31,073 bases of DNA from an uncultured virus (IMG/VR IMGVR_UViG_3300030100_000622) (Duplodnaviria; Heunggongvirae; Uroviricota; Caudoviricetes), in IMG/VR virus record IMGVR_UViG_3300030100_000622. One strand, given 5' to 3'. The translations under genes were made by a program, and so were the position numbers. A model generated the notes under the pieces. It saw only the letters and a program-made list of their open reading frames with translations. It ran no database searches and was not told the DNA's origin. This document shows, in pieces, positions 1 through 31,073 of the stretch (position 1 is the stretch's first letter; every line of letters begins with the position of its first letter).

Positions 1-272
1 TGTTGCTCATCTCTTGCTTTTCTCTCCCAATAGGCCGCAATTTTTCTATCAAGAAGCCACATCTCAATTTTGTCATTAAGAACCAAATCAAATACTGCTT
101 TCATAATCATAATTGCACCCACTGTCATTAGACCAAACAAGATAGAATGGGCCAATACTCCGTGTGGGAATGTTATACCATAGTTAGCATAAAAAAATAC
201 ATTTGCACCACTAAGCGCACCGACAAATAAAATTGTCATAATCAACCGTGTGTCTTTATTTAATACTGCCAA
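1..272 (-). CDS. Membrane protein with two predicted TM helices, 3' end outside the window (not in ORF track)
   Basis: Hand translation from TTG at 272, with GAGGTG RBS at 279-284: MAVLNKDTRLIMTILFVGALSGANVFF...SILFGLMTVGAIMIMKAVFDLVL...; the frame stays open to the window edge. Confidence 0.75.
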   Translation of the reverse strand, partial: MAVLNKDTRLIMTILFVGALSGANVFFYANYGITFPHGVLAHSILFGLMTVGAIMIMKAVFDLVLNDKIEMWLLDRKIAAYWERKARDEQ

Positions 273-282
273 AATTAACACC

Positions 283-591
283 TCAAGAGAAGTGAACCGA
301 TACTGCCGCCCCCGTACCCGTACCTGTGGATATATCCAAATATATTCCATTAGAGCAGATAGCACCATGTAAATCCATCTCAATGATTTGTGGAGATGAA
401 GGGTCGGCAGGGTCAAGAACAAGTCTAATCATTTCTTTGCCAGAAGCGGCTGAAGCATTATCAAATAATCTAACTGTTGTAGTCGCACCCATACCTGTTC
501 TAAGACAATGAACAGAAACTAATCTGCTTCTTTCGCCAGAAACGGCTTCACTTGCAGTTAATACTCCACTACTTCGACATACTGACGACAT
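283..591 (-). CDS. Hypothetical beta-rich virion protein (~102 aa)
   Basis: Start moved to MSSVCRS at 591 (GAGGG upstream); Gly/Ser/Thr/Ala-rich; lies downstream of the MCP. Confidence 0.65.
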   Translation of the reverse strand: MSSVCRSSGVLTASEAVSGERSRLVSVHCLRTGMGATTTVRLFDNASAASGKEMIRLVLDPADPSSPQIIEMDLHGAICSNGIYLDISTGTGTGAAVSVHFS

Positions 592-645
592 ATTGGTTCC
601 CTCGATTTTTGTTTGGGGATAACTCCCTCTTAACACTTGCGTAAA

Positions 646-975
646 TCATTCCGATTCAGCAACAGGTTTTGGTGCTGAAACTTTCTTTGGCTTGGTTTTC
701 TTCTTTTTAGGAAGAAGCAAGTCACACAATTGCTCATGGGTAGTAATAGTTTTACCTAATTCTCTTGATATGATTTCAAATCTATCAAGCCCAATTTGCA
801 TTAGACCTTCTCTATCAGATTCCTCAAAGATAAAGTCTAAGTTTTTGTCACTGTATCGAACCAAAGCCCCAATTAAAGATGGAAATGCAACAGGTTCGGG
901 GCTGGTTTTACTTAGCCCCAAACCCATTACATTCAAAGAAAACGGAGATGTACTACTCAGTTTTACTTTAACCAA
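646..975 (-). CDS. Hypothetical protein with Lys-rich C-terminal tail
   Basis: 109-aa ORF, TTG start with GAGGGA RBS, in the capsid operon. Confidence 0.7.
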   Translation of the reverse strand: MVKVKLSSTSPFSLNVMGLGLSKTSPEPVAFPSLIGALVRYSDKNLDFIFEESDREGLMQIGLDRFEIISRELGKTITTHEQLCDLLLPKKKKTKPKKVSAPKPVAESE

Positions 976-984
976 TTAAATCCC

Positions 985-1350
985 TCAAAGATTACCAAAT
1001 ACTCTAACTCGGAATTGCATTCCACTATGAGTACCGCCGTCTGCTACTTCGGCAGGGGTCGCTTGCAACGCTTGAACCAATAACATTGTTACTGAATCTG
1101 CGCTGGTATAACTACCGTCTGTTCCCGAAATCACAAAGGTTGGATAAAACAATACATTACTTGTCCCTGTATGGGAAATAGAATTAATTGTATTTAGACC
1201 GAATTTGGTTGCAGACATCACTACTCCGCTTGCATCATATGTGGAAACATCAATTAGCGCATCAACCATATATTCATCACCATTTGCTCTTGGCTTGGTG
1301 AATCCCTTATGGTCGGCTAATAGCGTGACCGTAAATACCTCTTCTGTCAA
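985..1350 (-). CDS. Putative capsid decoration/minor head protein
   Basis: 121 aa immediately downstream of the MCP, GAGGTGA RBS, beta-strand-rich composition; function inferred from position only. Confidence 0.55.
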   Translation of the reverse strand: MTEEVFTVTLLADHKGFTKPRANGDEYMVDALIDVSTYDASGVVMSATKFGLNTINSISHTGTSNVLFYPTFVISGTDGSYTSADSVTMLLVQALQATPAEVADGGTHSGMQFRVRVFGNL

Positions 1351-1361
1351 GTTAAATCACC

Positions 1362-2714
1362 TCACAGAAGGTTGGTAATTTTACCTTGTCCTTTGAAGTA
1401 TGAACAACCGACTTCAGCAATTGTGCGGTAAAGAGCCTTGTTTCCAAGAGTACCGACACCGAATGGGTTTCCGTTGCTAATACCATCCTCAAAGTATTGG
1501 GTTGGTTTCATAACGCTCATCCATAGATGGTCTGTATCAAGGAATAGCATATCACTAATACAAGCCGAATTAACTCCGGTTGAAGCCATAGCCGCAACAG
1601 GAATCATAGGAATGTCGTAGTATGTTGATACACGGAATCCGACTTCTTGACCTTTAACACCACGAACACCATTTACAGTTGGAACAATTTCCTTTCTATC
1701 CATGAATCTCTCTTGTGCTTGTAGCAAATCAGAGATAGTTTGTAGTGTGTCATATCCTGTTAGAATAACCTTTGGTGAACCACCAGCAACACGAAGTAGT
1801 CTAATCATTTCATTTAGAACAGTTAGTGTCAATTGGCGGGCATCTGCACTTGCATATGAATCACCGAAAGTAACCTGTGCATCAAGATAAGAAGCACTTG
1901 TACGGTTCTTTCCGTATAGATTGTTTGCTTCGTTAGCAGTAGCACTTGTTAGAAGGTTTGCAGTAGCCATAGCCTGTAATTCTTCTGTTGAAGAAACAAC
2001 CTTGTTTAGAGAAGTATAGTTTCTCTCGATTGTATCGACTGTTGCAGAACCCGATACATTTGTATCAGCATTATAGAATTCCAATGGCATTACAAGCATT
2101 AGATTCTGTACTTCAGCGTGATGCTTACCCATATCTTCACGCATTTGCGCTCTAATATCGCCAATTCCATCGTCAATTTGTGCCATTTCCATAGCCAATT
2201 CACTGAATTCAAATTGATGTGCAACAATTTTTGGGCTGGTGAACAATTGCTCGTATTTTGGTGCAATTGAAGCCAATCCATCAGCAACAGTATCTAATCC
2301 AGCATTTTCTGGAACACCACCAATCAAATCTGCTCTTGGAGTTGTTGAACCAAGATTAGCCGCATCTTTTGAACCCTCAACATCAACTGCCAAGAAATTA
2401 CCGCTACCACCAGCAGGTCGCTCACTTAGGACTCTCCATCCACTTGAAGTGTATGGTCGCTTTGCAATTACTGAAAGAGCATTACATTCACGGTTTAGCA
2501 TAGACCAAACTTTTTGTCCATAAACTTGGTTATACAATGCACCAAGAGAAGAAGCCGCAGTAGTACCACTACCGACTCCTAAAGATACATCATGGCCTGT
2601 GTGAATACCTGCCACTGCACCGACTTGCTTCAACAATTGGTTGTTGAATCCGCCTCTTGCGCCTGTTCCGTATGTCTGTGCTTCTAAGTCTGCTATTGTG
2701 TTAATATAACTCAT
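1362..2714 (-). CDS. Major capsid protein (HK97 fold)
   Basis: ~450 aa, start corrected to MSYINTIADLEAQ 1 nt after the protease stop; directly follows the prohead protease; C-terminal pattern typical of archaeal-virus HK97 MCPs (PKVILTG...YYDIPMIP...MLFLDTDHL...QGKITNL). Confidence 0.88.
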   Translation of the reverse strand: MSYINTIADLEAQTYGTGARGGFNNQLLKQVGAVAGIHTGHDVSLGVGSGTTAASSLGALYNQVYGQKVWSMLNRECNALSVIAKRPYTSSGWRVLSERPAGGSGNFLAVDVEGSKDAANLGSTTPRADLIGGVPENAGLDTVADGLASIAPKYEQLFTSPKIVAHQFEFSELAMEMAQIDDGIGDIRAQMREDMGKHHAEVQNLMLVMPLEFYNADTNVSGSATVDTIERNYTSLNKVVSSTEELQAMATANLLTSATANEANNLYGKNRTSASYLDAQVTFGDSYASADARQLTLTVLNEMIRLLRVAGGSPKVILTGYDTLQTISDLLQAQERFMDRKEIVPTVNGVRGVKGQEVGFRVSTYYDIPMIPVAAMASTGVNSACISDMLFLDTDHLWMSVMKPTQYFEDGISNGNPFGVGTLGNKALYRTIAEVGCSYFKGQGKITNLL

Positions 2715-2715
2715 C

Positions 2716-3957
2716 TTAAATTCCCCCAACCATCTTGTGAATGTCATTCCAATCCATATCTGCAATTTCATCCAATGTTGGTAGTGTGACTGAAGATTCT
2801 TCTTGTGCCTTTAGGATTGTTTCCTTTTCAGCAGTCAAAGACTTTCGTAGTTGTGTAAATTCATCCTTTAGGGATGCAATTTCTGAAGCCGCATCATATT
2901 GCGACTTAGCAAGAATAGTTTCTTTTGTGTTCTTTTCGGCCTCAAATCTGGCTTCAAATCTCTTTTGAAGATTATCGTATGCAATCTTTTCTAATTGCTC
3001 TTGGCGGAAAGCCTCATATGCTTTCTCAATATTAGCAACTGACAAATCAAGTGTTTCCAATTCTCTGTTATCAAATGCCTTAACTACCGGCATATCAGAT
3101 GCAGTTGGTTTGCCACCGCTAATTACAATACGGTTTGCTGGCTCGCCAATTTCGACACCTGCGCCATCAAGGGTTGAAAGCACTGCCGCATTCTTGGCAT
3201 CATCAAACTCTTCTTTTTCATAATCAGCATATTCAGCCATTTCTGTATCTGTCAATTCTTTGTCGTCATGACCTGCACCATGACCTGCTTCTTTCATTTC
3301 GGGCATAGCCGCTTCTTTTTCCGGCATGTCCTTGTCTATTTCTTCTTCTTCTTTTCGTAGCATATTAACTTCCTCCATTAGAGTGTCTAATTCTGCCAAT
3401 GCTTTTTCCAATTTACTCATGTTTTTCGCCTCTTTTTCTTGTTTTAGAATATCAAATTTTGCTTCGGGGTTAATTCCTTTTTCACAGATTGTTACTTCAT
3501 GTAATTCCAATTTACTGATTTCGTTATATTCACCTAATTCTGGATGCTTTTTCTTCACCTTATGAATTGCTTGTCCTCCAATACTAAATGACCTCAATGA
3601 ACCTTTTCTAATGCCTCTATTAATTTCTTTGGCTTTTTCTATATCATCTCTTAATTTAATTACTACAAAGAATCCAACATCATCAACTTCTGTTTTCCAT
3701 AGTTTTCCATTCTTATCTCGATATGATTTTACTACTTCTCCTACTTGAACATTTGAATGATTTGTCATTACATTTCTAAATTTTGGGTTCTCCATATAGC
3801 CATTTACTGCTTCTTGTAGTGCTTTGAGGGTAATTAAGTCATTTTGCTTATCAACGATTTCGATGCTTGCATATCCTCCAATCATTAAATCGTCGCTTTT
3901 GAGTATTCTGAAATCATTAGAACGAGTAGCCATTACTGCCGATGCCATTCTTCTCAA
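2716..3957 (-). CDS. Prohead (maturation) protease fused to C-terminal scaffold domain
   Basis: HK97/S78-type protease motifs IGGYAS, VDKQND, H in MTNHSN..VG, S in SFSIGG, LHEVT....GINPEA; then an acidic coiled-coil scaffold; the real start may be ATG at 3948. Confidence 0.9.
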   Translation of the reverse strand: MRRMASAVMATRSNDFRILKSDDLMIGGYASIEIVDKQNDLITLKALQEAVNGYMENPKFRNVMTNHSNVQVGEVVKSYRDKNGKLWKTEVDDVGFFVVIKLRDDIEKAKEINRGIRKGSLRSFSIGGQAIHKVKKKHPELGEYNEISKLELHEVTICEKGINPEAKFDILKQEKEAKNMSKLEKALAELDTLMEEVNMLRKEEEEIDKDMPEKEAAMPEMKEAGHGAGHDDKELTDTEMAEYADYEKEEFDDAKNAAVLSTLDGAGVEIGEPANRIVISGGKPTASDMPVVKAFDNRELETLDLSVANIEKAYEAFRQEQLEKIAYDNLQKRFEARFEAEKNTKETILAKSQYDAASEIASLKDEFTQLRKSLTAEKETILKAQEESSVTLPTLDEIADMDWNDIHKMVGGI

Positions 3958-3977
3958 CCCCTATCATTTGCGTTCAG

Positions 3978-3986
3978 TATATAAAA
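3978..3986 (-). promoter_or_regulatory. Candidate archaeal TATA box for the protease/MCP transcript
   Basis: TTTTATATA on the minus strand in the 30-nt gap, 21-30 nt upstream of the two candidate protease starts. Confidence 0.45.
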
Positions 3987-3987
3987 C

Positions 3988-6501
3988 TCACGGTATTTTC
4001 ACTTTAGAATACTTATCTTCGTAAATATTCCATATTCCTTCATCTGTATTGGGGTCTGCTGGTTTTTGTTCATACCCTGTCCATGCAAGCCACATCTTTT
4101 CTCCCTTAACAGGCAAGTACCTAACATGCAACTTAGTTTGAAATTTATTTCCATCCAACATATATTCGTGATACCCATGTCTTTGAACACCTAATTCAAC
4201 AGTACCGCTATCAATGACTTTTTCCTTTTCTATGTTAGAGGACACTTCAGCAGGGTACTTTCCAGCCGCACCAAATAAATCAAACAACTCTTTTTCGTTT
4301 TCTAAATCAATAGTCCAATTAATTGTTTCATCATCTAATTTAATTGATAGAGTAACATTATCATCTTGTCTTGCATATATTTTGAATGGGCCACTTCTTT
4401 TCTTTTCGGGAGTTTTATATTCTTTTTTAATTTCTTCAGTTTCTTGAAGTATCTTATCTTCATCTGCTTGAAGTTTATTATTTACAAAAGTAATACCATC
4501 TCTTAGATTCGCCCATTCTTTTAATTTCTGTGCTTTACCCTCTAAGATGTCTTTGTATAAATCTGATGCCTCTTTCATTAAGTAATTATGCAATTCATTT
4601 ACAGGCTTAGGCCCGTTGTCTTTCAAATATCTAAATATAATTAATGTTAAATTAGCCTGTTTAGTTTTCATAATCTCTTCAACTTGTGTTTTCCAAACAT
4701 CAATATCTAAAAGAGCATTCTTCGCCATAAGATTATTTTCTTCAAAAGAATAGAATACCAATCCTTCTGTATCAAACTTAATTAATAGATTGGCTTCTCC
4801 ATGTATATGGTCTGTAATCTGTACTCCTTTTTTCAAAGCATCCACATTATAGTTTAATGACTTTTTAGTATCTTGAGATAAAAACTCCAAAGTCACTAAT
4901 TTGTCTGGCATTTCAACTTCGGGAATCTCTATTACTTTAGCAGAATACAAAGTATATCTGTCGCCTGTCTTTTTTACTTCATCCACTTTAACACGAACAA
5001 TATCACCGACATTGGCAGATATTTTAGTATTCAATGCTTTACCAACATTCATGTATTTTTTACCGTCTATTTCTTTAATGAATTTATTATTCATATCTTC
5101 AGTACCAATATCAACACCAAGAACATAAGAATTCAGATTACTCTTAGTCTTTGTTTTATCTAATACAATAACATCTATATCAACAAACTTTTTCCACTTA
5201 ACCCATTTAGGATTCTTTCTCGCACCTAAATAATATGTTGAAGTAGCATCTTTAATTACAACTCCTTCAGCAGTCGGCATGTTCATTATTTTCTTAGCAT
5301 ACTCATCAATATCTTTTAGACTGTCTGCCATTCGAGTATCTTTTTTTGATGGAAAAACTAAATGTTCAGAAGAATGAGCAGAATAATTGTTGAACATAAT
5401 ACCCATTCTATTTTCTAATTCTTCATCTAATAAAGTCTGCTCATCATGTCGCATAATATCAAAAACATGACATCTTAGTTTAGCATCTTTGTATTTATCT
5501 TTGAATACATGAGCAATAGTATCTGCTCGATGCAGTGCATCATCACCGGAAAATAAAATCAATTCAGCATCTAAAATACAGTCACCGAAATGTTTCTTTC
5601 TCAATTCACTAACAATGTCTTTACACTTATCAGTAATGTTTTTCTTATTATAAGAATACACCTTTATTGAGTTATCTAACTTGTGCAATTGCACACGCAT
5701 ACCATCATATTTTTCTTGAACATACCATTGGCCACTAAAGCCTTTTAATTCTTTTAGGTCGTCAATCTCAAATATACGATACATTGGTTTATTGGGAATA
5801 ATGAAATCACTAATAGACTTCTCATCTTCGGACTTCTTTTCAGACTTTTTCATCTCGATGTCCTTCAATTCCTCCCATTCTTTTTCTTCATGTTGAGAGA
5901 AAAAGATTAACTGCAACATATCCATGGCCGCTTTTACCTTCTTTTCGACCTTCTTTGAGTCTTTTCCATCCCCATAATGCTCAATAATATACAGGGCTAT
6001 GTCGTCAGATTGTAGGTCAAGACCCTCTAAACCCTCTGTTAAATCGTCGGGTTCCATGTCTTTTATTGCATATGCTGAAGGAGTTAATGCTTTAGTGTTG
6101 TTCCTTAGAGCATAATGCACGAATTTAACCATAGATTCGGGATTATTCATTAATTCCTCAAGAACACTACCTTTGAATCTTTTAGCGAAAGGGTCAGCAA
6201 CTAAATCAGAATTATATCTAACTAACTTAATTTTTTCATATAATTCCTTTGCTTGATTTGATTCAACATTATTAATTTCTTTATCATCAAAATCCTCAGC
6301 ATCAATAAAATTCTTTAATTCTTTACCTGCTGCATCTAATTCTTCATAAGATTCTTCTATCAATTCAACTGCTTTACGCCAGCGACTCCCATATTCTTTG
6401 GGGTCGTGCCTTGCTGATAGATAGGCAACCCTTGTTTTTTCAAACAAACGAATAATCTCGATAGAAGGTTGTCTATCTTTTTCGATAGAACCTAATTTCA
6501 T
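3988..6501 (-). CDS. lig: ATP-dependent DNA ligase with long N- and C-terminal extensions
   Basis: Nucleotidyltransferase motifs I QEKYDGMR, III ILDAELI, IIIa VFDIM, IV EGVVIK, V WVKWKK, followed by an OB-fold region (DVIVL...VGKA). Confidence 0.9.
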   Translation of the reverse strand: MKLGSIEKDRQPSIEIIRLFEKTRVAYLSARHDPKEYGSRWRKAVELIEESYEELDAAGKELKNFIDAEDFDDKEINNVESNQAKELYEKIKLVRYNSDLVADPFAKRFKGSVLEELMNNPESMVKFVHYALRNNTKALTPSAYAIKDMEPDDLTEGLEGLDLQSDDIALYIIEHYGDGKDSKKVEKKVKAAMDMLQLIFFSQHEEKEWEELKDIEMKKSEKKSEDEKSISDFIIPNKPMYRIFEIDDLKELKGFSGQWYVQEKYDGMRVQLHKLDNSIKVYSYNKKNITDKCKDIVSELRKKHFGDCILDAELILFSGDDALHRADTIAHVFKDKYKDAKLRCHVFDIMRHDEQTLLDEELENRMGIMFNNYSAHSSEHLVFPSKKDTRMADSLKDIDEYAKKIMNMPTAEGVVIKDATSTYYLGARKNPKWVKWKKFVDIDVIVLDKTKTKSNLNSYVLGVDIGTEDMNNKFIKEIDGKKYMNVGKALNTKISANVGDIVRVKVDEVKKTGDRYTLYSAKVIEIPEVEMPDKLVTLEFLSQDTKKSLNYNVDALKKGVQITDHIHGEANLLIKFDTEGLVFYSFEENNLMAKNALLDIDVWKTQVEEIMKTKQANLTLIIFRYLKDNGPKPVNELHNYLMKEASDLYKDILEGKAQKLKEWANLRDGITFVNNKLQADEDKILQETEEIKKEYKTPEKKRSGPFKIYARQDDNVTLSIKLDDETINWTIDLENEKELFDLFGAAGKYPAEVSSNIEKEKVIDSGTVELGVQRHGYHEYMLDGNKFQTKLHVRYLPVKGEKMWLAWTGYEQKPADPNTDEGIWNIYEDKYSKVKIP

Positions 6502-7611: not shown

Positions 7612-9708
7612 TTAATCCCCCTTTCTTTTTGCTCTTTCAGCCTCTCTTTTTTCTCTTTCGGCCCTTGCTCTTGCTTGATACTCTTTGCCGCCTAATTGTT
7701 GCTCATCGGTATAACCTTCTTCAGTCCAAGAAGTTTCTTCTTCACGATAATCATATTCTCTTCTGCCAGCATCGGGTCGAGTAGTATATTCTCCTGTTTC
7801 CTCTAAATCTTTTTTCTTTTGTTCAGGAGTTACCGTAGTATCAACTTCTGCACTTGGTATAGAATCTTCTGTTCTTTTAATAGCATCATTAATTGCAGGA
7901 ATTAAACCTGTAATTTCCCCAACAAGAATATTGGCTTGCTTAATATCAGATTCTTTTAATCCTAAATCTTCTAATTGTTTTGTTGCCATTTCTGGTAAAA
8001 TAGTTAGCATGTCTGTTATTCCTTTCATATCAACTCCTACCATTGTATCTCTTGAAGGCTGTTTTGCTTTACCTTGTTTGAGCCATTCTTTCCATTCTTT
8101 TTTGGCTTCTTCTCCCATATCTTCTATTTCTCTAAATAGTTTTTTAATTGAGCCAACAAGATTACTTAGCATTCTGCTTGATTCTGTCAAAGACGATGAT
8201 AAACTCTTAGATGGTAATTTTACTTCATCCGTTTTATCAATAAGAGCATCCATTTTTTCAACTATGCTGCTTAAATATCTCAAAAACTTAACATTAAATT
8301 TAGATAATAGCCCATCTATTTTTTTATTGTTTTCTTCTATTCTATCTGATACTTTACCTATTTCTTCTTTTATTTCTTTAGGCAAATTGTTTCTCATTTC
8401 TTGTATTCTGTCAAGTAACTCTGTAAAATATTCTGGAATATTTTCAATTTCTCCGAGTTCATCAATATCTAAAGGAGTTTCTTTTGCTCTTGGGTCAGCA
8501 GATGGTCTTTCTGTTCCTTCAGATATTGTTTTTCCTTGTTTATCTTTGCGAGTAGTTACTTTTCTTTTAGGAACAATTATCTTTTTACCCTCTTCTGTTT
8601 CTCTCACAACAAGATTAGATAGTTTAATTTTAATCTCTTTTACTTCATTAGCAATTCTATCTTCTATTTCTTGGCGAATAGTTTCTTCTGGCAATTCTTT
8701 CAAATTTTTATTATATTGTTTAATTTCTTCTAAATTATTTTCTAAAGATTCTAAGTAATTATTGGCACTTTTAATTGTTTGACGAAGATTTTTTCTCGCT
8801 CTCTTGTATGTTTCAACATGGCCTTTGGTATCTCTATCTTTGAGCCTTTGTCGTAAATTAGACAAATCTCTTCTTACGGCTGGAATATTTTGTAAAGCCT
8901 TTGGTTCAGCATTAAACTTCTCTAAATGAATTTCACCAAGCGTAGTCAATAAATCAACATCATGGTTATCTAATTTAGCCTTAGATAATTCTAATAGAGT
9001 ATTATTCATATCGTGAATGTTTATTTCTCTTTTGCTTTTTTTCTTTGTATATTGATTCTTTTTCTTTTTATACATTTTACCAGAATAAATAGGAAAATCT
9101 CCGCCTTCAGTAAATTCACTTGCTCTTTTAATCAGATAATTACCTTCTTTCTTTAGAGCAACCAAAGTAGTTATGAGTCTCTCAGATTTAGTTTTAGTCA
9201 CATTTTTATATGGACTTTGGCCAGAAATTACTTTTTGGTCGGAAACAGGTTGAGTTATTTGAATAGTCCTAATCATTTCTCTTAATTTAGGAATTAATTC
9301 TTCATAGGTCAAGATTTCTCTTTGAAGTGAATTCTGCCTATTTGCTTCTCCGGTTTTTTGCCTTGCTTCTGCTGAAATTGCTTCTGCTGAACCTTCATCC
9401 ATTAACCTTCGTTGCTCGACTTCTGAAATATCCCCTCTCCCTCTTTTTGCATCGGCTCGCCTTTGAGTACCATAGCCGGTTCGATAGCGAACATCTCCCT
9501 CTAATTCACCATAATCTTCTTCTTTTTTAGCAATAGAGATATACTTTCTATATTGAAACATATTAGAAGGATTAATGTTTTTAATCAAAGACTTCTTGAT
9601 TTCTCCGGCACTTGCCTTAGCAGTAACTAACTCTCTTGTTTCATCATCCAATTCAACTTTACTTAGAACATAAAGTAAAGATTTATCTTTAGACAATTCA
9701 AAAAACAT
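7612..9708 (-). CDS. Large charged coiled-coil hypothetical protein
   Basis: 698-aa ORF, GAGGTGA RBS, K/E-rich heptads; no family recognised. Confidence 0.8.
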   Translation of the reverse strand: MFFELSKDKSLLYVLSKVELDDETRELVTAKASAGEIKKSLIKNINPSNMFQYRKYISIAKKEEDYGELEGDVRYRTGYGTQRRADAKRGRGDISEVEQRRLMDEGSAEAISAEARQKTGEANRQNSLQREILTYEELIPKLREMIRTIQITQPVSDQKVISGQSPYKNVTKTKSERLITTLVALKKEGNYLIKRASEFTEGGDFPIYSGKMYKKKKNQYTKKKSKREINIHDMNNTLLELSKAKLDNHDVDLLTTLGEIHLEKFNAEPKALQNIPAVRRDLSNLRQRLKDRDTKGHVETYKRARKNLRQTIKSANNYLESLENNLEEIKQYNKNLKELPEETIRQEIEDRIANEVKEIKIKLSNLVVRETEEGKKIIVPKRKVTTRKDKQGKTISEGTERPSADPRAKETPLDIDELGEIENIPEYFTELLDRIQEMRNNLPKEIKEEIGKVSDRIEENNKKIDGLLSKFNVKFLRYLSSIVEKMDALIDKTDEVKLPSKSLSSSLTESSRMLSNLVGSIKKLFREIEDMGEEAKKEWKEWLKQGKAKQPSRDTMVGVDMKGITDMLTILPEMATKQLEDLGLKESDIKQANILVGEITGLIPAINDAIKRTEDSIPSAEVDTTVTPEQKKKDLEETGEYTTRPDAGRREYDYREEETSWTEEGYTDEQQLGGKEYQARARAEREKREAERAKRKGD

Positions 9709-9717
9709 TTAGTCACC

Positions 9718-9942
9718 TCAGAATGGAATATTTTCTTTTTTGTTTCTGTGCTTTGGTGGCAGTGTAACTACATCGGGAACATCTGCTGAAACAGGTTTAG
9801 CCTTATGTGTAGTATCTTGCGGTACTCCAACGCTGAAGTCCTTTGTCTTTCTTAATTTGGTATCAGCGTTAGCGTTTATTGCTTTCACTTGTGCCAATTC
9901 TTTTTTCAATCTTATTTCTTTTTGTCTTAAATCTTCTGTCAT
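9718..9942 (-). CDS. Hypothetical protein
   Basis: 74 aa; TAATG overlap with the upstream gene. Confidence 0.7.
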   Translation of the reverse strand: MTEDLRQKEIRLKKELAQVKAINANADTKLRKTKDFSVGVPQDTTHKAKPVSADVPDVVTLPPKHRNKKENIPF

Positions 9943-10307
9943 TATTCCACCAACCTATTTGGGTCTATGCTATCAAAGCCATGTTCATCATCAAAGTAGT
10001 CGCTATATCCCTTATATCCACCAAGAGTACCTTTGTAAATAGCAATTATGCTTTTGCTACTTGGTATATCAACAATATAATCATCAATTTTGATTCCCAT
10101 TTCTTTTAATTTATCGAATGCTCTTACTTGCAGATTTCCATGATTGTCTGATAAATCCACTTTTAATTGATATTCTGGCGGATTGTATCTGTAAAACTGA
10201 GAATATCCTGATGTATGACCTTGCTTTATCTCAGAAATTCTTTTTTCAATAAACTCTTCTAAACTTATTGCTTGTTTCTCTTCTTTTAGTATATCTTGCC
10301 AAGTCAT
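9942..10307 (-). CDS. W-tagged hypothetical protein (121 aa)
   Basis: Start corrected to MTWQDILKE at 10307, 1 nt after the portal stop. Confidence 0.75.
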   Translation of the reverse strand: MTWQDILKEEKQAISLEEFIEKRISEIKQGHTSGYSQFYRYNPPEYQLKVDLSDNHGNLQVRAFDKLKEMGIKIDDYIVDIPSSKSIIAIYKGTLGGYKGYSDYFDDEHGFDSIDPNRLVE

Positions 10308-10308
10308 A

Positions 10309-11943
10309 TCAACCAACTCTTCTTTCTGTTCTTCTATCCACATTCTGATTTCCAGCATCCTTTGGTAATCCCGCTAATCTTTTATCCGGCCCTTCGCTCA
10401 TTGATGGTTTATTTCTTGTTGCCGGTGGATTTTCTTGAGGCTTGCTTTGCATCATTTGTTCTTGCATTTGGCCCATCTGTGAAGCATCTATGTTAGTTCC
10501 AGCGTATTGGTCTAATTCAACCTTTCCCTCTTCATCGGGTGATTCGCCGCCTTCGGGTTCTTTTGGTTCTGGCTTCTTAAATGTAAATTGTCCATCCTCA
10601 TCCATATCAACTTCAAATCCTAAGTTTTTGGTAGCGGCGGCAATATTGACTTCAATCTCTCTTTTACGAAGAACAGCAATTTCATCTTCTTCTTCGCTTG
10701 GTGGGAGTTTTAATTTCCAATCTGTAATTCCAAATTGCTTTACAAGGAATGGGAATACATATTCATTATACACATTTTGAGCCATTTGTACTGCTCGATT
10801 AGTTACAAGAATCTGCATACCTTCGTTATTCAAACCTCCACTTGTAGTGTTATCGGCCATGAATACTTTACTAACACCATAGAATGCTGATATTCTATCT
10901 CTCAAATCATCCTTGACTGAAACATAATCCATTTCCTTGAGGCTATCCATGAATTTAATCCATTCGACTGCACCCTTTCCATTTTCTGCCTCAATACCCA
11001 TTACAGGAATAAAGTGAGGGTCTTGTTCCATCTTTTCTTTGACTGCTCTCCAAAAAGATTTCATTGAATCCATATTTCTTGTTTGTACTGCCAGCAAACC
11101 TTTAGGCATTCGGCTCTTAGTATATGAAGAATTAACATAGTTTTCCATAGCAATTAAAGTCATTATGTTATTGTAAAGAGTAATAACAGGTGACATACCA
11201 TACAGTCGAGAAGGACTATATTTACTGAAATGCAATACTTCTCCTTTCAAGAAGTATTGGTCTTCTCCATTTACTCTATTGACATAATGAACGGGGAATA
11301 GATTAGCACCGCAAGTTTCACATCTTTCATGCGGTTCTGTTGCAAGCATGTTTCTATGATTAACACAAGTGAATCCCGTAGTACCTCTTTCTCCTAACTC
11401 ATCAGTGTAAATATACATAGTAACAGGGTCGCCTCTATACACTTCTTTGATTCTGTGCATTCTAATTTTACCGTTACCATCTATGAAGTATTCTTTTACT
11501 AAGACAATGTACGCATCATCCATGATATTCAAATCATCTTCTAATTCTCTAAGAACATCAATAAATAATTGCTCTGATTTATTGACATATCCTTCAATAA
11601 ACTTTTCAGCATATTCTAACTGTTTTACATCAGGAGTTTTCAAATCTGTGCTACCACATCGAGAACATTCTGCTACGGGTCTTTGATGTATTTTACCACA
11701 ATTGTTGCACTTTGCTTCGTATGCTTTTTCCCAGAGATAACCTCTTCTAAATATCTCCTGTTTCAATTGAGTAATACAAGTTCTCGCAATAACTGATTGA
11801 TTAATCAGATGATAGATTAGAGGGGCAGTCATCATATTTTGATTCTGCCTTTCTTGAATACCCATATTGAAGATTTTTCTATCAGCAGGTTTAGGAGTTT
11901 GCCTTCTAAATAAATTGGTTACGGAAAATCTTTTTTTAGCCAT
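10309..11943 (-). CDS. Portal protein with two Zn-ribbon insertions
   Basis: 544 aa; portal-like segments DAYIVLVK, EVLHF....RLYGMSPV, PKGLL, ISAFYGVS; GGAGGT RBS; lies between terminase and protease. Confidence 0.88.
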   Translation of the reverse strand: MAKKRFSVTNLFRRQTPKPADRKIFNMGIQERQNQNMMTAPLIYHLINQSVIARTCITQLKQEIFRRGYLWEKAYEAKCNNCGKIHQRPVAECSRCGSTDLKTPDVKQLEYAEKFIEGYVNKSEQLFIDVLRELEDDLNIMDDAYIVLVKEYFIDGNGKIRMHRIKEVYRGDPVTMYIYTDELGERGTTGFTCVNHRNMLATEPHERCETCGANLFPVHYVNRVNGEDQYFLKGEVLHFSKYSPSRLYGMSPVITLYNNIMTLIAMENYVNSSYTKSRMPKGLLAVQTRNMDSMKSFWRAVKEKMEQDPHFIPVMGIEAENGKGAVEWIKFMDSLKEMDYVSVKDDLRDRISAFYGVSKVFMADNTTSGGLNNEGMQILVTNRAVQMAQNVYNEYVFPFLVKQFGITDWKLKLPPSEEEDEIAVLRKREIEVNIAAATKNLGFEVDMDEDGQFTFKKPEPKEPEGGESPDEEGKVELDQYAGTNIDASQMGQMQEQMMQSKPQENPPATRNKPSMSEGPDKRLAGLPKDAGNQNVDRRTERRVG

Positions 11944-11947
11944 ATTA

Positions 11948-12097
11948 TTAAACCTCCTGTGATTTTTCTAAATCCTTTTCAGTTATCAATCCTTTCATAG
12001 ACTTAGGCCTACCATGCGCTACCCAACACTTTTCACAAAAGCCATGTGGTCGCAAGTCGGGTGTAGTATAACATAGCCCGCAGTATTGGAACTTCAT
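11948..12097 (-). CDS. Small Zn-finger protein (49 aa; below the ORF-track cutoff)
   Basis: MKFQYCGLCYTTPDLRPHGFCEKCWVAHG...; ATGA overlap with the upstream gene; fills the gap to the portal exactly. Confidence 0.65.
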   Translation of the reverse strand: MKFQYCGLCYTTPDLRPHGFCEKCWVAHGRPKSMKGLITEKDLEKSQEV

Positions 12098-12352: not shown

Positions 12353-13987
12353 TCACAACACATCATAGTCGCTTGTAGGATTCAACCAATCCCTCTTCTC
12401 TCCTTCGGCAGTAATCTCATACCAAATGTAACCACTAATCCATCCTATATTATCACCCATCCAATCTAACAACTTATCTTCAATAGATTCTTGGTCTTCA
12501 TCTTCATCAATATTTAATTCTTTAGCAGTAAGGAAAACATTCAATTCAATATCTTCCATAGGGTCATCTTCTGTTGAATAAGACTCAATCACAAAGGTTC
12601 TCTCTTGTTGCTTAACTATTGTGCCACCAATATTTTCTAACTCATCCATAACCGACATTTTACAATTACCTTGTAATTTTGAAATATCATCTAAGTTAAT
12701 ATTTTCCTTTGAGAAATCAAACCCAACATGGTCTTTATGGTTCTCCCATTTCATCAATTTGAAAATTTCATCACATCTTTGCTTATACCAATCTGCCTTC
12801 TTGTATGATTTTTTCATACGAATTAACTCTAACAATAATTCAGCATTACCCTTCTTCATTCGGAAATGTGGCAAACACTTGGTTAATAATTTAGAAACAT
12901 CATCCTGTGAATAGAAATTCAAACGATTTACCGGCCTTGTGTCCTGTGGAGATTTTTGGTCTAAATGTAATCGACCAAAACCAATGGACTTGTGCATTTC
13001 ATACATGAAAGTCTTACCTCTCTCCCCTGTTGCGACTAATCCGACTCTTGGATTCATGTTACGGTCAAGAGTAATATATCCATCAGAATCAATAAATGCC
13101 GCAGTATAAGCCCACACATTCTTCTTTAACATACTCGGCATCTTGTAATAACTACCATTGTAACAAGCAATATCTAACTTGTTTATGCTTTTAGATATGG
13201 AATTACTGTTAGTAATTTTGAACAAATCTGAAGGCATTCTTTCATGTATTCCTTTAGCATTTATGCCCGGATTTTCACACACCATTTTTAGAATGAAGTC
13301 ATTCTGTCTGTCTTTTTTAGATTTAGTTAAAGACTGATTAGAAATTTTAGAAATAACATTTCTGAATTCTTTTTTGCTGGCTCTCATGGTTTTGAATAAG
13401 TCACTATATTCTTTTCCATAGACCATCCCATTCTGTTCTAATTCAGCCTCCCAATATTTACACAAGGCATCAACTACTTCTCTTCGAGTTTCAACATCAG
13501 TCATTTTGTTTAACTTTTGTAAATCTTTTTCACTAAATCTCATTTTATTTAGAGGCACTCGATATGGATTAAGCCAAGTAATAGAATCTATACACTTTTG
13601 TAAATGGTCTGAATAAGCATCAATCATAGTATCAATAGCCTTTGCCATTTTTATTCTCTGTTCTCCCTTTAATTCTCTTCGAGCCTTTCTCATTTTTTTA
13701 ATTAGGTCGGGAACTGTTTGGTCTTGAACAATGTATTCATTAGGAAAATTAACTAATTGTTTTCTTGCCTCGGTAGCATTAATTCCATGGGTTTCTGATA
13801 ATTTAGAAATCTCTTCATGTTGTGACATAACATAGGTATCAAATGAAGTAGCAACCTCACTTTCTTCGGTTGGTGCGGTTAATTCTTCTTGCATTTCTTG
13901 AAAAGTTTCTTTCTCTTCTTCTTTTATTCTGTCAAGATTGTCTGCAAACTCTCTTAATTTATCCGGTAATTCTTTTCTTAATGTCAT
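12353..13987 (-). CDS. Multidomain protein with LAGLIDADG endonuclease-like domain
   Basis: AYTAAFIDSDGYI motif, then IGFGRL and LLTKCLPHFRMKKGNAELLL typical of LAGLIDADG domains; preceded by a helical region and a wHTH-like segment (ENPGINAKGIH). Confidence 0.75.
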   Translation of the reverse strand: MTLRKELPDKLREFADNLDRIKEEEKETFQEMQEELTAPTEESEVATSFDTYVMSQHEEISKLSETHGINATEARKQLVNFPNEYIVQDQTVPDLIKKMRKARRELKGEQRIKMAKAIDTMIDAYSDHLQKCIDSITWLNPYRVPLNKMRFSEKDLQKLNKMTDVETRREVVDALCKYWEAELEQNGMVYGKEYSDLFKTMRASKKEFRNVISKISNQSLTKSKKDRQNDFILKMVCENPGINAKGIHERMPSDLFKITNSNSISKSINKLDIACYNGSYYKMPSMLKKNVWAYTAAFIDSDGYITLDRNMNPRVGLVATGERGKTFMYEMHKSIGFGRLHLDQKSPQDTRPVNRLNFYSQDDVSKLLTKCLPHFRMKKGNAELLLELIRMKKSYKKADWYKQRCDEIFKLMKWENHKDHVGFDFSKENINLDDISKLQGNCKMSVMDELENIGGTIVKQQERTFVIESYSTEDDPMEDIELNVFLTAKELNIDEDEDQESIEDKLLDWMGDNIGWISGYIWYEITAEGEKRDWLNPTSDYDVL

Positions 13988-28373: not shown

Positions 28374-28727
28374 TCACCTCTTAGATAGTTGCGCTAAACT
28401 TTTATCTTCTTTATTCAGTGCTTCATTTACTACTGCTCTAATTTTTTCAAAGGCATCTTCAATAGCGTCTTCTGTTCGGACATCACCGAGAATACTACCT
28501 CTTTGTTTAACATCATATTCTCTCATAAAAGCCGATTGTGCGCTTTGCATTAAATTTTCAATTTGGCCCTTAACCATTTGCTCTAATTTTACTATTCCAT
28601 CATACACTTCATCAAATGGATTTGCCCCTTCATCGAATTGAGGAATTGAATAAGAAGGTAACGCCCTCATTCTATCTTTATGTTCTTCACTTACTCTTTC
28701 TTTCTTAATCTCGTCTTTCCATGTCAT
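28374..28727 (-). CDS. W-tagged hypothetical protein
   Basis: Start MTWKDEIKK. Confidence 0.75.
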   Translation of the reverse strand: MTWKDEIKKERVSEEHKDRMRALPSYSIPQFDEGANPFDEVYDGIVKLEQMVKGQIENLMQSAQSAFMREYDVKQRGSILGDVRTEDAIEDAFEKIRAVVNEALNKEDKSLAQLSKR

Positions 28728-28732
28728 ATTAA

Positions 28733-29038
28733 TCACTCCCCCATTCTAATTTTAAGTTCGTCAAACTCTTTTAGTCTTAGTCCCAAAGCACTTATTACTG
28801 CTAATTTAGTAATAATGGTATCTTTATCCATAGAATCAAGTACTCCTACCGTATTACTTATTGCTTGTATTTGTTTCTCAGTTAATCTTAGTTTTCCCTC
28901 ATCATTATTATATACGGCATTTAGAAGTTCTATTGCAACATTGGGTTTGATTCCTCTAATACCACTAATTTGACTATTTAACATAGCCGTGTTATCATAG
29001 GGGTCAACATCTTTTCTTATTTCGTCTTTCCATGTCAT
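28733..29038 (-). CDS. W-tagged hypothetical protein (first gene of the array)
   Basis: Start MTWKDEIRK. Confidence 0.75.
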   Translation of the reverse strand: MTWKDEIRKDVDPYDNTAMLNSQISGIRGIKPNVAIELLNAVYNNDEGKLRLTEKQIQAISNTVGVLDSMDKDTIITKLAVISALGLRLKEFDELKIRMGE

Positions 29039-29184
29039 AATCATCAATTCCTGTTATTTGTCCATAATGAAGTAAAATTTCTCAAAAAATGTGGCGGAAT
29101 TTTTTTGGCACTTGCGCCCGGTTTTAATTTTTCTCATTTATATTCCCAGAATAAAAATCATATCATTTAATTATGTAGTTTTAT

Positions 29185-29421
29185 TTATTGTTTAAAATCA
29201 GTTAGTGAAGTTTGTCTGTATATTAGATTAATATATTCTGTTATTTTGGTTTTAGCATCTCTTAATTGTTTGGTAATCTTGTCTAATTTGCTATTGTCGG
29301 TATCGTCTATTTGCTGAGGTGACTTTCTTTTTTGCTTAATATCGTCTATCATTTCTTTAATGTATTTATTAATATCATTCAGTATCTCTAATGCCTCGTC
29401 ACCATTGGCCATATCAAACAA
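29185..29421 (-). CDS. Small helical-hairpin protein with C-terminal PIP-box-like motif
   Basis: 78 aa (start may be ATG 29412); ends RQTSLTDFKQ; TTTATA box at 29444-29449 upstream. Confidence 0.6.
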   Translation of the reverse strand: MFDMANGDEALEILNDINKYIKEMIDDIKQKRKSPQQIDDTDNSKLDKITKQLRDAKTKITEYINLIYRQTSLTDFKQ

Positions 29422-29547
29422 TAATGTCCAAAGTGGCCCATCATATAAATGCTGCGGCTAATCTCCATGATAATTAAAGCCGAAATCGCTAAACAAGAGC
29501 CTTTAGAACCTAATATTTGAATGAGAAGGTAAAATAAAAAATTTGAA

Positions 29548-29570
29548 CAAAGCCATATGGTTGTGCTTTG
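29548..29570. repeat. Palindromic element copy 1
   Basis: CAAAG-CCATATGGTT-GTG-CTTTG. Confidence 0.75.
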
Positions 29571-29606
29571 CAAAACCCTGTCTGAAACATAAAGCGGAGG
29601 ATAACT

Positions 29607-29933
29607 ATGGCACAAATTGATATTGATGCGGCTTATGCACTGATGAATAAAATACCATTCAAGAGAGGCAACACAGTAGTTACTCACACTGAATACCCCG
29701 AAGGAACGGCTTCTGAAATGCTATTACATGGCAATTTAATTGCATGGATTACACCAAGAAGCCAACAACTTTGGATTAGTCACAGTGGATTTATGACACG
29801 CACTACCAAGAACAGATTGAATGCCCTACCAAATGTTAACATCGTTCAACGCAACTATATGTGGTTTCTAAACGGTACTTATTGGGGTGGCACTTCTCAA
29901 TATATTGGTAACGGTATTCCGCAGGTATGGTGA
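29607..29933 (+). CDS. Conserved viral hypothetical protein (likely early gene)
   Basis: GGAGG RBS; motif NT.V...LHGNLIA...TRTTKNRLNAL...VQRNY.W, which I recall from phage hypothetical proteins. Confidence 0.8.
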   Translation: MAQIDIDAAYALMNKIPFKRGNTVVTHTEYPEGTASEMLLHGNLIAWITPRSQQLWISHSGFMTRTTKNRLNALPNVNIVQRNYMWFLNGTYWGGTSQYIGNGIPQVW

Positions 29934-30172
29934 TTAAAATGACACAAAGAAGAGATGAAAGAGTCCGTTGGCTTTTGAATTGGATAGATGAACAAGACGA
30001 TAAATGCCATGTTATTGTTGCTATGCGTTTTTCATGCGTCTTATACTTCAAAACTGAAGAAGATAAATCAGAGTACAATAAAGACAAATATTGGACTGCT
30101 ATAAGAATACTTGGCCATAAGCCCTATCCTCACTTGCCGGTTTGGAAGAAGGGCTGGAAGCCTAAAAAGTGA
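29927..30172 (+). CDS. Hypothetical protein
   Basis: 81 aa, coupled to the upstream gene; the real start may be ATG 29939 after GGTGA. Confidence 0.65.
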   Translation: MVIKMTQRRDERVRWLLNWIDEQDDKCHVIVAMRFSCVLYFKTEEDKSEYNKDKYWTAIRILGHKPYPHLPVWKKGWKPKK

Positions 30173-30179
30173 TATTCCA

Positions 30180-30281
30180 CCACTCACTGTAATAGAATCC
30201 TGTTCAAAGAGTTTGATACGGGTAATAGGTAATTTGGAAGCCTCTTAGGAAGGGGATTACTGAATCTATTACAGTGAGTGG
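30180..30281 (+). ncRNA. Structured element: 17-bp perfect stem closing two inner hairpins
   Basis: CCACTCACTGTAATAGA (30180-30196) / TCTATTACAGTGAGTGG (30265-30281); the inner helices use G-U pairs on the + strand. Confidence 0.5.
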
Positions 30282-30306
30282 CCCAATAGGGAGTTTATTT
30301 TATTGG

Positions 30307-30335
30307 CAAAGCCACACCATATGGTTTTATCTTTG
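30307..30335. repeat. Palindromic element copy 2
   Basis: CAAAG-CCACA-CCATATGGTT-TTAT-CTTTG. Confidence 0.75.
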
Positions 30336-30339
30336 TAAC

Positions 30340-30790
30340 AGTGAAACGAACCCTAATGGAACGCCCCGTACTCCATGCACCCGAATTACTACTATCACCA
30401 CTTGTTTCCCTACCTTTAAGCCATGGCTAATTGGTATTGTGTCCGGCTTAGACTTACAACGCGTGTTTCCGGTTTGTTCCACTATGGTTTTATGGCCACT
30501 AATCGCCATAGGAATATAATGGGTGGGAATCAGGACTGCGTACCTGAAATAGTGATGCGATTGACTCGCACTGACTTTGGGTTGCTCTTGTTCTTAAGAG
30601 CCACTATACCGATATTATCAACCACCTTGGCAGGGTGGCCCCTTTTGAGGCTTAATGACTTTCACACTTCCCATAACTTACTCATTAGAGCATCATTATG
30701 GGGTTGTGTCGCACCACACGAAATATCGTACCTTAACGCCAACCCGTAGCGTTATTCGGTCATTCCCTCCGGGGGTAATTACTCCCCGGC
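30340..30790 (-). ncRNA. Candidate large structured ncRNA (~450 nt)
   Basis: Raised GC, no credible ORF, >10 hairpins plus nested long-range helices; most G-U versus C-A asymmetries favour the minus strand. Confidence 0.5.
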
Positions 30791-30837
30791 AATAAAAACA
30801 GTGGTCGCAAATATAGGGTTGTAACATTACATTATCA

Positions 30838-30867
30838 CAAAGTTATTACAACCATATGGTTGCTTTG
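30838..30867. repeat. Palindromic element copy 3
   Basis: CAAAG-TTATTACAA-CCATATGGTT-G-CTTTG; contains the perfect 14-bp palindrome CAACCATATGGTTG. Confidence 0.75.
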
Positions 30868-30883
30868 TAATTTACTTGCCCCA

Positions 30884-30961
30884 TTAGTGGGGTTCCACGC
30901 ATCCAAATGATACACAGAACCCCACAGAATTACCACACTTAACACACATCAATACTCTCAT
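30884..30961 (-). CDS. 25-aa Cys-rich microprotein
   Basis: MRVLMCVKCGNSVGFCVSFGCVEPH; starts 2 nt after the upstream stop, with GGAGATGA upstream. Confidence 0.4.
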   Translation of the reverse strand: MRVLMCVKCGNSVGFCVSFGCVEPH

Positions 30962-30963
30962 TC

Positions 30964-31073
30964 TTAATCATCTCCAAATATTTCTGGTTTTACATCTGAA
31001 ACATCATAACACTTGATTTTGAAGCCCCCTAATGCTAAACTTACTAACTGCATGTTTAGCATAGTTTTCAAAT
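30964..31073 (-). CDS. 3' end of a gene entering from beyond the window
   Basis: Open frame ...LKTMLNMQLVSLALGGFKIKCYDVSDVKPEIFGDD-stop. Confidence 0.5.
   Translation of the reverse strand, partial: LKTMLNMQLVSLALGGFKIKCYDVSDVKPEIFGDD

Follow-up and report, generated by a model that had tools for sequence, protein, structure and literature searches.

manA RNAs have been orphans since 2010. Weinberg et al. (2010) placed them in 5′ UTRs and made a riboswitch-like proposal (available text of PMC2864571), Rfam keeps the family (RF01745) in its Cis-reg class, and the RNA is filed as a riboswitch candidate of cyanophages. In the meantime, manA has also acquired a structural side. According to the available part of a 2026 preprint (10.64898/2026.07.01.735769), cryo-EM shows that manA RNAs of less than 200 nt form octamers, decamers and a cage of 60 subunits in vitro; the cage is built of pentamers joined by kissing loops.

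The second system of relevance here is a group of viruses. Philosof et al. (2017) described the magroviruses as viruses of marine group II archaea. As hallmarks, the available text (PMC5434244) lists a linear genome of about 100 kb, an HK97-type structural module into which genes for an ATP-dependent ligase and a homing nuclease are embedded, a chaperonin, and replication genes of archaeal type. No paper connecting magroviruses to non-coding RNA came up in a literature search, and the words "non-coding" and "promoter" are absent from the available text of PMC5434244.

The window, i.e. the whole stretch of 31,073 nucleotides analysed here, is a piece of a tailed-virus genome, in which nearly all genes are encoded by the minus strand. 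Identified were genes for a capsid protein, a prohead protease, a portal protein, the large terminase and an ATP-dependent DNA ligase, together with an HNH-like ORF; a tRNA was not found in the window. Near one end lies a gene-free gap of 0.9 kb, for which a sequence-only reading had proposed a large structured viral RNA of about 450 nt on the minus strand, possibly of a new family. The gap indeed houses an RNA gene. Its GC content had been called higher than that of the coding region, and it amounts to 0.44-0.45 across 30301-30900, whereas values elsewhere in the window are mostly 0.28-0.43. The RNA is large (about 430-450 nt), structured and read from the minus strand, as its folding and the covariation among its relatives reveal; its coordinates and those of its surroundings are compiled in Table 1.

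Table 1. Features of the RNA gene, its flanks and its carrier (positions in the window unless a record is named)
Feature	Position	Strand	Remarks
manA-type RNA domain	30520..30790	-	enlarged, 271 nt vs 192-position model; RF01745 match, folding, covariation
P1 hairpin CCGGGGAGTAATTACCCCCGG	30769..30789	-	helix 1; 5/6 pairs changed on both sides
UGGU of GUGGUG hairpin loop	30713..30716	-	helix 7; 5′ side of loop-loop pseudoknot/kissing pair
GCCA in loop of CCACC/GGUGG hairpin	30628..30631	-	partner of 30713-30716; corresponds to ACCA loop of Rfam manA consensus
3′ domain (tail A), 163 nt	30357..30519	-	conserved; 15 sequences
Tail helix UAUGG/CCAUA	30510-30506 with 30487-30483	-	covaries
Tail closing helix UGGAAC/GUUCCA	30481-30476 with 30362-30357	-	GGAAC/GUUCC paired in 75/75 cells
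Tail helix CCG/CGG	30472-30470 with 30368-30366	-	
Self-complementary apex AGCCAUGGCU of central tail hairpin	30419..30428	-	longest palindrome of central segment
Palindromic motif CAAAG-N-AACCATATGGTT-N-CTTTG	30838..30867	.	upstream of RNA gene; candidate regulator site/promoter-associated element
TATA-like box AACCCTATATT	30810..30820	-	near edge 20 nt before RNA 5′ end
Second palindromic-motif copy (30307-30335) with AACCCTAAT box (30349-30357)	30307..30357	+	opposite direction
RNA contig, run X1	30361-30458		depth 182
RNA contig, run X1	30429-30621		depth 1450; bridges core/tail junction 30520
RNA contig, run X1	30592-30749		depth 4660
RNA contig, run X2	30476-30790		depth 114
RNA contig, run X3	30482-30775		depth 29.6
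RNA contig, run X4	30522-30790		depth 14.3
Minus-strand ORF end bordering the gap	30964	-	ORF list
Plus-strand gene converging on the RNA	29607-29933	+	PHROG 554, Pfam Kyano_Gp96
Plus-strand gene converging on the RNA	29927-30172	+	ORF list
ATP-dependent DNA ligase-domain protein, 837 aa	3988-6501	-	inside head-gene module
ORF of 544 aa, weak HNH match	12353-13987	-	inside head-gene module
TFIIB-type zinc-ribbon protein, 292 aa	G001 65580-66458 (L291:5580-6458)	-	E 3.5e-07

The 5′ part of the RNA is not without relatives in Rfam. RF01745 aligns over its whole length (model positions 1-192) to 30789-30520 on the minus strand, with 54.6 bits and an E-value of 6e-13. The gathering cut-off of the family is 55.2 bits. 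The RNA of the window thus falls 0.6 bits short of it, which is why a default scan of the window at the gathering threshold yields no hit at all, the match becoming visible in E-value mode only. The next best Rfam matches have E-values of at least 0.74. As had been said, the RNA is not a tRNA, an RNase P RNA or an intron. In the alignment to the model, insertions of 73 and 38 nt stand out; the inner domain departs from the model by insertions and by pairs that are not standard. The architecture of the manA consensus is nevertheless present: P1, a long-range closing helix, an internal domain of several helices and two 3′ hairpins. Common to both are the closing helix GGGAA/UUCCC, the junction GACCGAAU...UAAGGU and the loop-loop pairing of GUGGUG with ACCA.

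The relatives scatter around the same threshold. When 20 related loci were compared with the Rfam models, manA was matched at E ≤ 0.01 by 11 of them, with scores between 41.9 and 58.7 bits, and two of these exceed the cut-off; the other nine do not match at E ≤ 0.01. Judged by these scores, the family is a divergent manA branch with members on either side of the Rfam threshold, and the 5′ domain of the window RNA reads as an enlarged, divergent relative of manA, hence as a new variant and not as a new class. The nearest virus record, G001, reaches only 14.5 bits with RF01745, and its locus L003 gives no manA match at E ≤ 1 in cmscan. This RNA (L251/L280) has an insertion of about 75 nt with a duplicated CACCC between core and tail, which probably accounts for the poor score.

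Relatives were collected in several ways. A second contig with the RNA was found through the proteins encoded in the flanks. A gapped pattern made of invariant blocks retrieved 5 viral contigs and 23 metagenome loci (22 distinct cores at this stage, the window included), and a pattern of the 3′ domain 11 viral contigs, 10 of them new. The final core alignment comprises 26 distinct sequences from ocean viral and metagenome contigs. Left out were L254, which had come up in the metagenome pattern scan and was recognised as a chance hit by alignment, the truncated L257 and L272, nine duplicates, and L282 and L284 with their too divergent inner domain. A bare 14-mer pattern gave 119 loci, of which only L030 was related by blastn; this set does not enter any count. 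An 18-mer search with the tail added nothing to two relatives already found, and blastn of the region 30100-31073 against GenBank phage records found no match.

The folding energy distinguishes the two strands. Folded as the minus strand, 30340-30790 is more stable than each of 100 shuffled sequences (z -2.88); as the plus strand it is matched or surpassed by 17 of 100 (z -0.97). All of the folding signal resides in the 5′ 271 nt, which taken alone reach a z of -5.25, with none of 200 shuffles being as stable. The expectation that the RNA folds better than shuffled sequence is thus borne out for this domain of the minus strand and fails for the 3′ domain (see below). From the 26 cores, RNAalifold derived 78 pairs, and compensatory change is seen in 56 of these; the loop-loop pairing was added to this structure before the recount, which resulted in 82 pairs in 18 helices. 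In this structure 97.3% of the cells are paired, as compared with 41-45% when the partners are slid by 1-3 columns; 57 of the 82 pairs are changed on both sides (slid control: 18-23), and the covariation score is 0.593 (slid control: 0.06-0.11). None of 500 shuffles attained the observed values. Since the structure was derived from the same 26 sequences, these numbers are somewhat favourable to it, though by far not enough to explain the margin. Most sequences have G-U at several pairs, which would become A-C mismatches on the plus strand. As many such pairs can form only in the minus-strand RNA, the fold is assigned to that strand.

Much of what had been seen in the letters of the window reappears in this structure. 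The hairpin P1 is the exact reverse complement of 30769-30789, G30790 is placed correctly, and P1 as well as the hairpins TAACGC/GCGTTA, CCACC/GGTGG, GCTCTT/AAGAGC, GTGCGA/TCGCAT and CAGG/CCTG are all part of covarying helices in the 26 relatives. So is CCCATAAT/GTTATGGG, the weakest of these seven with 80.8% paired. Different is the fate of the long-range pairings, for which a full-length alignment of 15 sequences is available: ATCACTATTT/AAGTGGTGAT is paired in 42% and CCGAAT/ATTCGG in 60%, in both cases without covariation, so the pairings that would have tied the two halves of the RNA into one fold are not supported. The string AAGTGGTGAT itself had been copied faithfully, but it occupies 30392-30401, two nucleotides away from the place assigned to it.

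The pairing between the loops deserves particular attention. UGGU and GCCA, which occupy alignment columns 84-87 and 176-179, are paired in 98%, and the second of the four pairs is G-C in 14 sequences, G-U in 5, A-U in 4 and U-A in 3. This contact could be made either within one molecule or between molecules. An all-against-all search for stacked pairs produced many chance hits of 3 bp; only re-tested pairs were used. The loop of P1, AGUAAUUAC, contains a palindrome of 6 nt, UAAUUA; UCAUGA takes its place in other sequences of the alignment, and further members have non-palindromic loops.

The 3′ domain, here called tail A, is a different matter. It has no Rfam match at E ≤ 10, and its folding energy is that of a random sequence (z +0.50; 134 of 200 shuffles of these 163 nt fold as well). 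It is common to 15 distinct sequences, in which long invariant blocks are kept. Three helices are recognised in it (Table 1). Together they are paired in 93.8% of the cells, as compared with 37-60% for slid partners, and 7 of their 15 pairs are changed on both sides (n = 15), a covariation that depends on few independent changes. The RNAalifold signal of the tail was weak: six tails yielded 24 pairs, of which 4 had both partners changed, with a covariation term of +0.28, and 15 tails left only 13 pairs. The hairpins that had been read here, ATGGAG/TTCCAT and TATGGC/GCCATA, need revision. The former is paired in 59%, and its 3′ strand pairs instead with GGAAC, in 75 of 75 cells. The latter, with 85% paired, is possible and shows no change on both sides; its rival TATGG/CCATA reaches 95% and includes an exchange of A-U for U-A.

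The tail also has a central hairpin that varies so much that MAFFT leaves it unaligned; it was judged by eye and by a count of palindromes. Its stems differ between lineages, and the centre of its apex is self-complementary in all 15 tails: CATG in 7, TATA in 4, CGCG in 2 and CTAG in 2. The blastn matches of the tail are close relatives of this RNA plus one weak reverse-strand match of 33 nt in L030; none of 121 loci retrieved from viral contigs with a general manA pattern has this tail by blastn.

The 3′ ends are modular. After the closing strand UUCCCACCC of the core, the relatives split into several kinds: some have tail A; others a wholly different tail B of about 120 nt; three loci have just a short hairpin, followed by the next promoter motif; L281 has both tails. 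In L282 and L284, the tail runs directly into a ribosome-binding site and a start codon (ATG). Tail A appears to be a lineage-specific add-on without a family in Rfam, moderately supported by its helices and invariant blocks. The suspicion of a new family did not hold for the 5′ 270 nt and could at most apply to the 3′ domain.

A further 3′ module is found downstream in L271, L274, L278, L279, L283, L285, L287 and L281, and again in the tail-B loci (L249, L252, L253 and others). It has a covarying stem, ACGGACA/UGUCCGU, GGCACA/UGUGCC or ACGGGCA/UGCCCGU, and a loop ending in UUUUCCCUG (by eye). Its UUCCCUG is complementary to CAGGGAA/U on the 5′ side of the closing helix of the core, with which it could conceivably pair as an alternative.

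The RNA gene is preceded by a palindromic motif. Its core AACCATATGGT has 6 strand-hits in the window, where 0.67 are expected. CCATATGG was found in all 26 members whose upstream DNA is long enough (that of L272 and L274 is not), at a distance of 68-82 nt from the reference point on the upstream side. A TATA-like box about 25 nt upstream of the RNA had been spotted as a weak element. It is kept: in 23 of 26 members, AACC[ACT]TA[TA] precedes P1 by 20-25 nt. This location, at about -25, is unlike that of the bacterial -10 element and fits the spacing of an archaeal TATA box, and the promoter would accordingly be of archaeal type. Transcription probably starts near 30790, as had been proposed; two RNA contigs end there.

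The motif recurs. Within the window, CAAAG..CCATATGG..CTTTG, followed by a box resembling AACCYTAT, is seen between small genes at 29538-29567, 30307-30335 and 30838-30867; in G002, the contig of L030, seven hits cluster within 3 kb (8834-11963). An early gene set might have such a sequence as its promoter or operator. The copy at 30307-30335 is oppositely oriented; with its box it adjoins the 3′ end of the RNA, with a slight overlap, and is conserved only in the window's own clade. If its box were active, an antisense transcript across tail and core would result; over 30260-30342, the four mapped RNA runs contain no contig.

Other conserved elements surround the gene. The 60 nt upstream of the palindromic motif (30868-30930, minus strand) form the hairpins GGGGTTC..GAACCCC and CCCC..GGGG; between the window, L005 and L006 they hardly differ, being more conserved than the RNA itself, and may be the terminator of the upstream gene. 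On the other side, just past the plus-strand gene ending at 30172, a 17-bp stem, CCACTCACTGTAATAGA/TCTATTACAGTGAGTGG, encloses 76 nt (30176-30285). By eye, the relatives show compensatory changes in it (T-A to C-G, G-C to A-T), and one position is a G-U pair in a plus-strand reading only; the RNA contigs do not extend to this stem.

The RNA is present in ocean RNA libraries. Nineteen runs share words with the stretch; the best four, all of one study, were mapped on 28600-31073, while the share of words is small in the remaining runs, X5-X19. Within the gap, the metatranscriptome contigs cover only 30361-30790, at depths from 14 to 4660. The flanking genes reach contig depths of 2-28. No contigs lie on 29015-29595, 30011-30342 and 30841-31073 in the four mapped runs, an absence that for 30177-30342 and above 30840 is not evidence of silence. 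Shallow flanks and three empty stretches argue against DNA carry-over. In the four mapped runs, the RNA is the most abundant one of the locus. In short, an abundant RNA is present, and its limits agree with the fold: two contigs (X2, X4) end at 30790 and one (X4) at 30522. As contigs of one study cannot prove strand, ends or level, the reads are presumed to stem from the minus strand.

What kind of virus carries this RNA? The ligase gene of the window is located between the protease and the portal genes and adjoins the HNH-like ORF; a ligase and a nuclease embedded in the head-gene module are also the arrangement in the published magrovirus description (available text of PMC5434244). The large terminase has at most 27.5% identity to that of any cultured phage. 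The nearest full virus record, G001, comprises 92.6 kb and shares 31% of the window's sampled words; its intergenic region around the RNA is 79-88% identical to that of the window. G001 encodes a split family-B DNA polymerase, a clamp-loader ATPase, an ERCC4/HhH nuclease, a second ATP-dependent ligase with three domains, a Cpn60/TCP1 chaperonin, a TFIIB zinc-ribbon protein and a class II ribonucleotide reductase. Together, window and G001 hold the gene set that the available text of PMC5434244 ascribes to magroviruses. By gene content alone, the carrier is probably a magrovirus-like virus of marine archaea.

Two of these genes merit a remark. The TFIIB zinc-ribbon protein of G001 may be a transcription factor of the virus itself, possibly one that recognises the repeated promoter motif. 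The product of the plus-strand gene 29607-29933 matches Pfam Kyano_Gp96 with an E-value of 1.2e-13; this family is named after T4-like cyanophages, and with the gene (PHROG 554) the virus group is connected a second time to the gene pools of cyanophages.

How is the RNA to be understood? By its history, manA should be a leader that senses a ligand and controls the read-through into downstream genes. Apart from the Rfam class and the placement by Weinberg et al. (2010; available text of PMC2864571), this interpretation can invoke L282 and L284, where the tail leads straight into a ribosome-binding site and an ATG, and the same-strand gene that follows another promoter motif in most other relatives. 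Precisely that fresh promoter motif between RNA and next gene, however, speaks against read-through, as does the short hairpin with which three relatives end the RNA right past the core. The 5′ UTR position characteristic of manA, although seen in L282 and L284, is not found in this window: the genes in 29607-30172 converge on the RNA, the alignment of the relatives shows no conserved reading frame after it on its own strand, and there is consequently no downstream frame for it to control in this virus. Moreover, the depth of the core RNA is far above that of any flanking gene, and no site resembling an intrinsic terminator was found on the minus strand. We consider a role as cis-regulatory leader improbable. 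Still less credit can be given to the idea that the region encodes a protein. Two frames are indeed open in the window (30423-30749, plus strand, 108 aa; 30327-30509, minus strand, 60 aa), yet all 25 relatives have, compared with the window, at least one indel run in the core that is not a multiple of 3; the region is thus not coding. By eye, the ORF on the minus strand is cut short in L005 (18 codons) and in L006 (34 codons), and substitutions track base pairing, not codons. The chance of a coding region is practically negligible. An RNA family unrelated to any known one is very improbable, too: the empty default scan would suggest it, but the full-length manA match, the common junction sequences and loop-loop pairing, and relatives scoring up to 58.7 bits, i.e. 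above the cut-off, contradict. For the tail, with no Rfam match at E ≤ 10, the idea could still hold.

More serious, though still rather doubtful in our opinion, is the view that the manA-type core of 270 nt alone is functional, the 3′ 160 nt being a trailer for processing or termination, or conserved at the DNA level beside the opposite promoter-like copy. Folding, covariation and RNA depth are all weaker in the tail, and the mature RNA may therefore be the core alone. In run X1 the tail is 8-25 times less deep than the core (182 vs 1450-4660), the contig of X4 ends at 30522, the relatives have three kinds of 3′ end, including none, and the last 30 nt of the block conserved in the window's clade are the plus-strand promoter-like copy. 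On the other side of the balance are the invariant blocks and three covarying helices of the tail in 15 distinct sequences, the self-complementarity of its apex through four sequence states, and the RNA contig 30429-30621 that runs across the junction. Also, a manA-type core lies directly upstream of the tail in all 10 other viral contigs found by a pattern of the tail only, and in G001.

The explanation we favour, and consider fairly probable, is a stand-alone gene for a non-coding RNA of two domains and manA type in a magrovirus-like virus, an RNA that by homology would self-assemble. Transcription would start near 30790, 20-25 nt past the TATA-like box that follows the palindromic motif, and would run along the minus strand to about 30360. 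The 5′ 271 nt would fold as an enlarged relative of manA, with extra helices inserted with respect to the Rfam model; the 3′ 163 nt would be an add-on closed by a covarying helix, with the self-complementary apex on its central hairpin. With no downstream frame to control, the RNA would act in its own right. Its most likely mode of action, by homology with the manA RNAs of the preprint, is self-assembly into an RNA-only particle; we rate it so because there is no gene to control, because the RNA has a promoter-like motif of its own and is the most abundant one of the locus, and because of the preprint itself. The palindromic loops, in P1 and at the tail apex, are candidate two-fold contacts.

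One may go further and suppose that a virus of archaea makes a manA-type RNA from its own promoter, at a very high level, and that this RNA assembles, within the infected archaeal cell, into a particle consisting of RNA only, in which a self-complementary kissing loop supplied by the tail sets the two-fold contacts and hence the size or geometry of the assembly. We regard this as a tentative idea, with the odds against it. If true, one RNA fold would serve viruses of bacteria and of archaea, which would speak for a structural role independent of the host rather than gene control. Be that as it may, an enlarged, free-standing manA RNA that is abundant in ocean RNA libraries, with a carrier resembling viruses of archaea, weakens the gene-control reading and fits the cage report. 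The modular 3′ ends (no tail, tail A, tail B) offer natural variants for testing what sets assembly.

Compared with manA as described in the available text of Weinberg et al. (2010; PMC2864571), the likeness extends to P1, the closing helix GGGA/UCCC, the junction GACYGAAU...UAAGGU, the two 3′ hairpins and the pairing of the GUGGUG hairpin loop with the ACCA loop, which is annotated there as "pseudoknot?". The differences are as clear: 271 nt instead of 192 model positions, with a score just under the cut-off; a stand-alone position with its own promoter-like motif instead of a 5′ UTR; a 3′ domain of 160 nt; and a magrovirus-like carrier instead of T4-like cyanophages or marine gamma-proteobacteria. 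With the manA assemblies (available part of 10.64898/2026.07.01.735769), the window RNA has the family in common; kissing loops and a GNRA-receptor contact are reported there, several conserved hairpin loops are kept here, and self-complementary loops are present. Those assemblies, however, were made in vitro from RNAs below 200 nt of other sources.

The comparison with ROOL and GOLLD, drawn already in the sequence-only reading, is apt inasmuch as manA RNAs are reported to build RNA-only multimers and cages in vitro; a match to their models was not found. ROOL, GOLLD and OLE are large, ornate, phage-associated RNAs that form homo-oligomers (available text of 10.1101/2024.12.08.627333), and the window RNA may multimerise likewise. 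It is much smaller than these, and no Rfam model but manA matches it at E < 0.7. The dimerisation initiation site of retroviral RNA, finally, is a palindrome in a hairpin loop, the sequence of which drifts and yet stays self-complementary. The tail apex behaves similarly, but this is an analogy only, as in the window RNA the palindrome includes the top of the stem.
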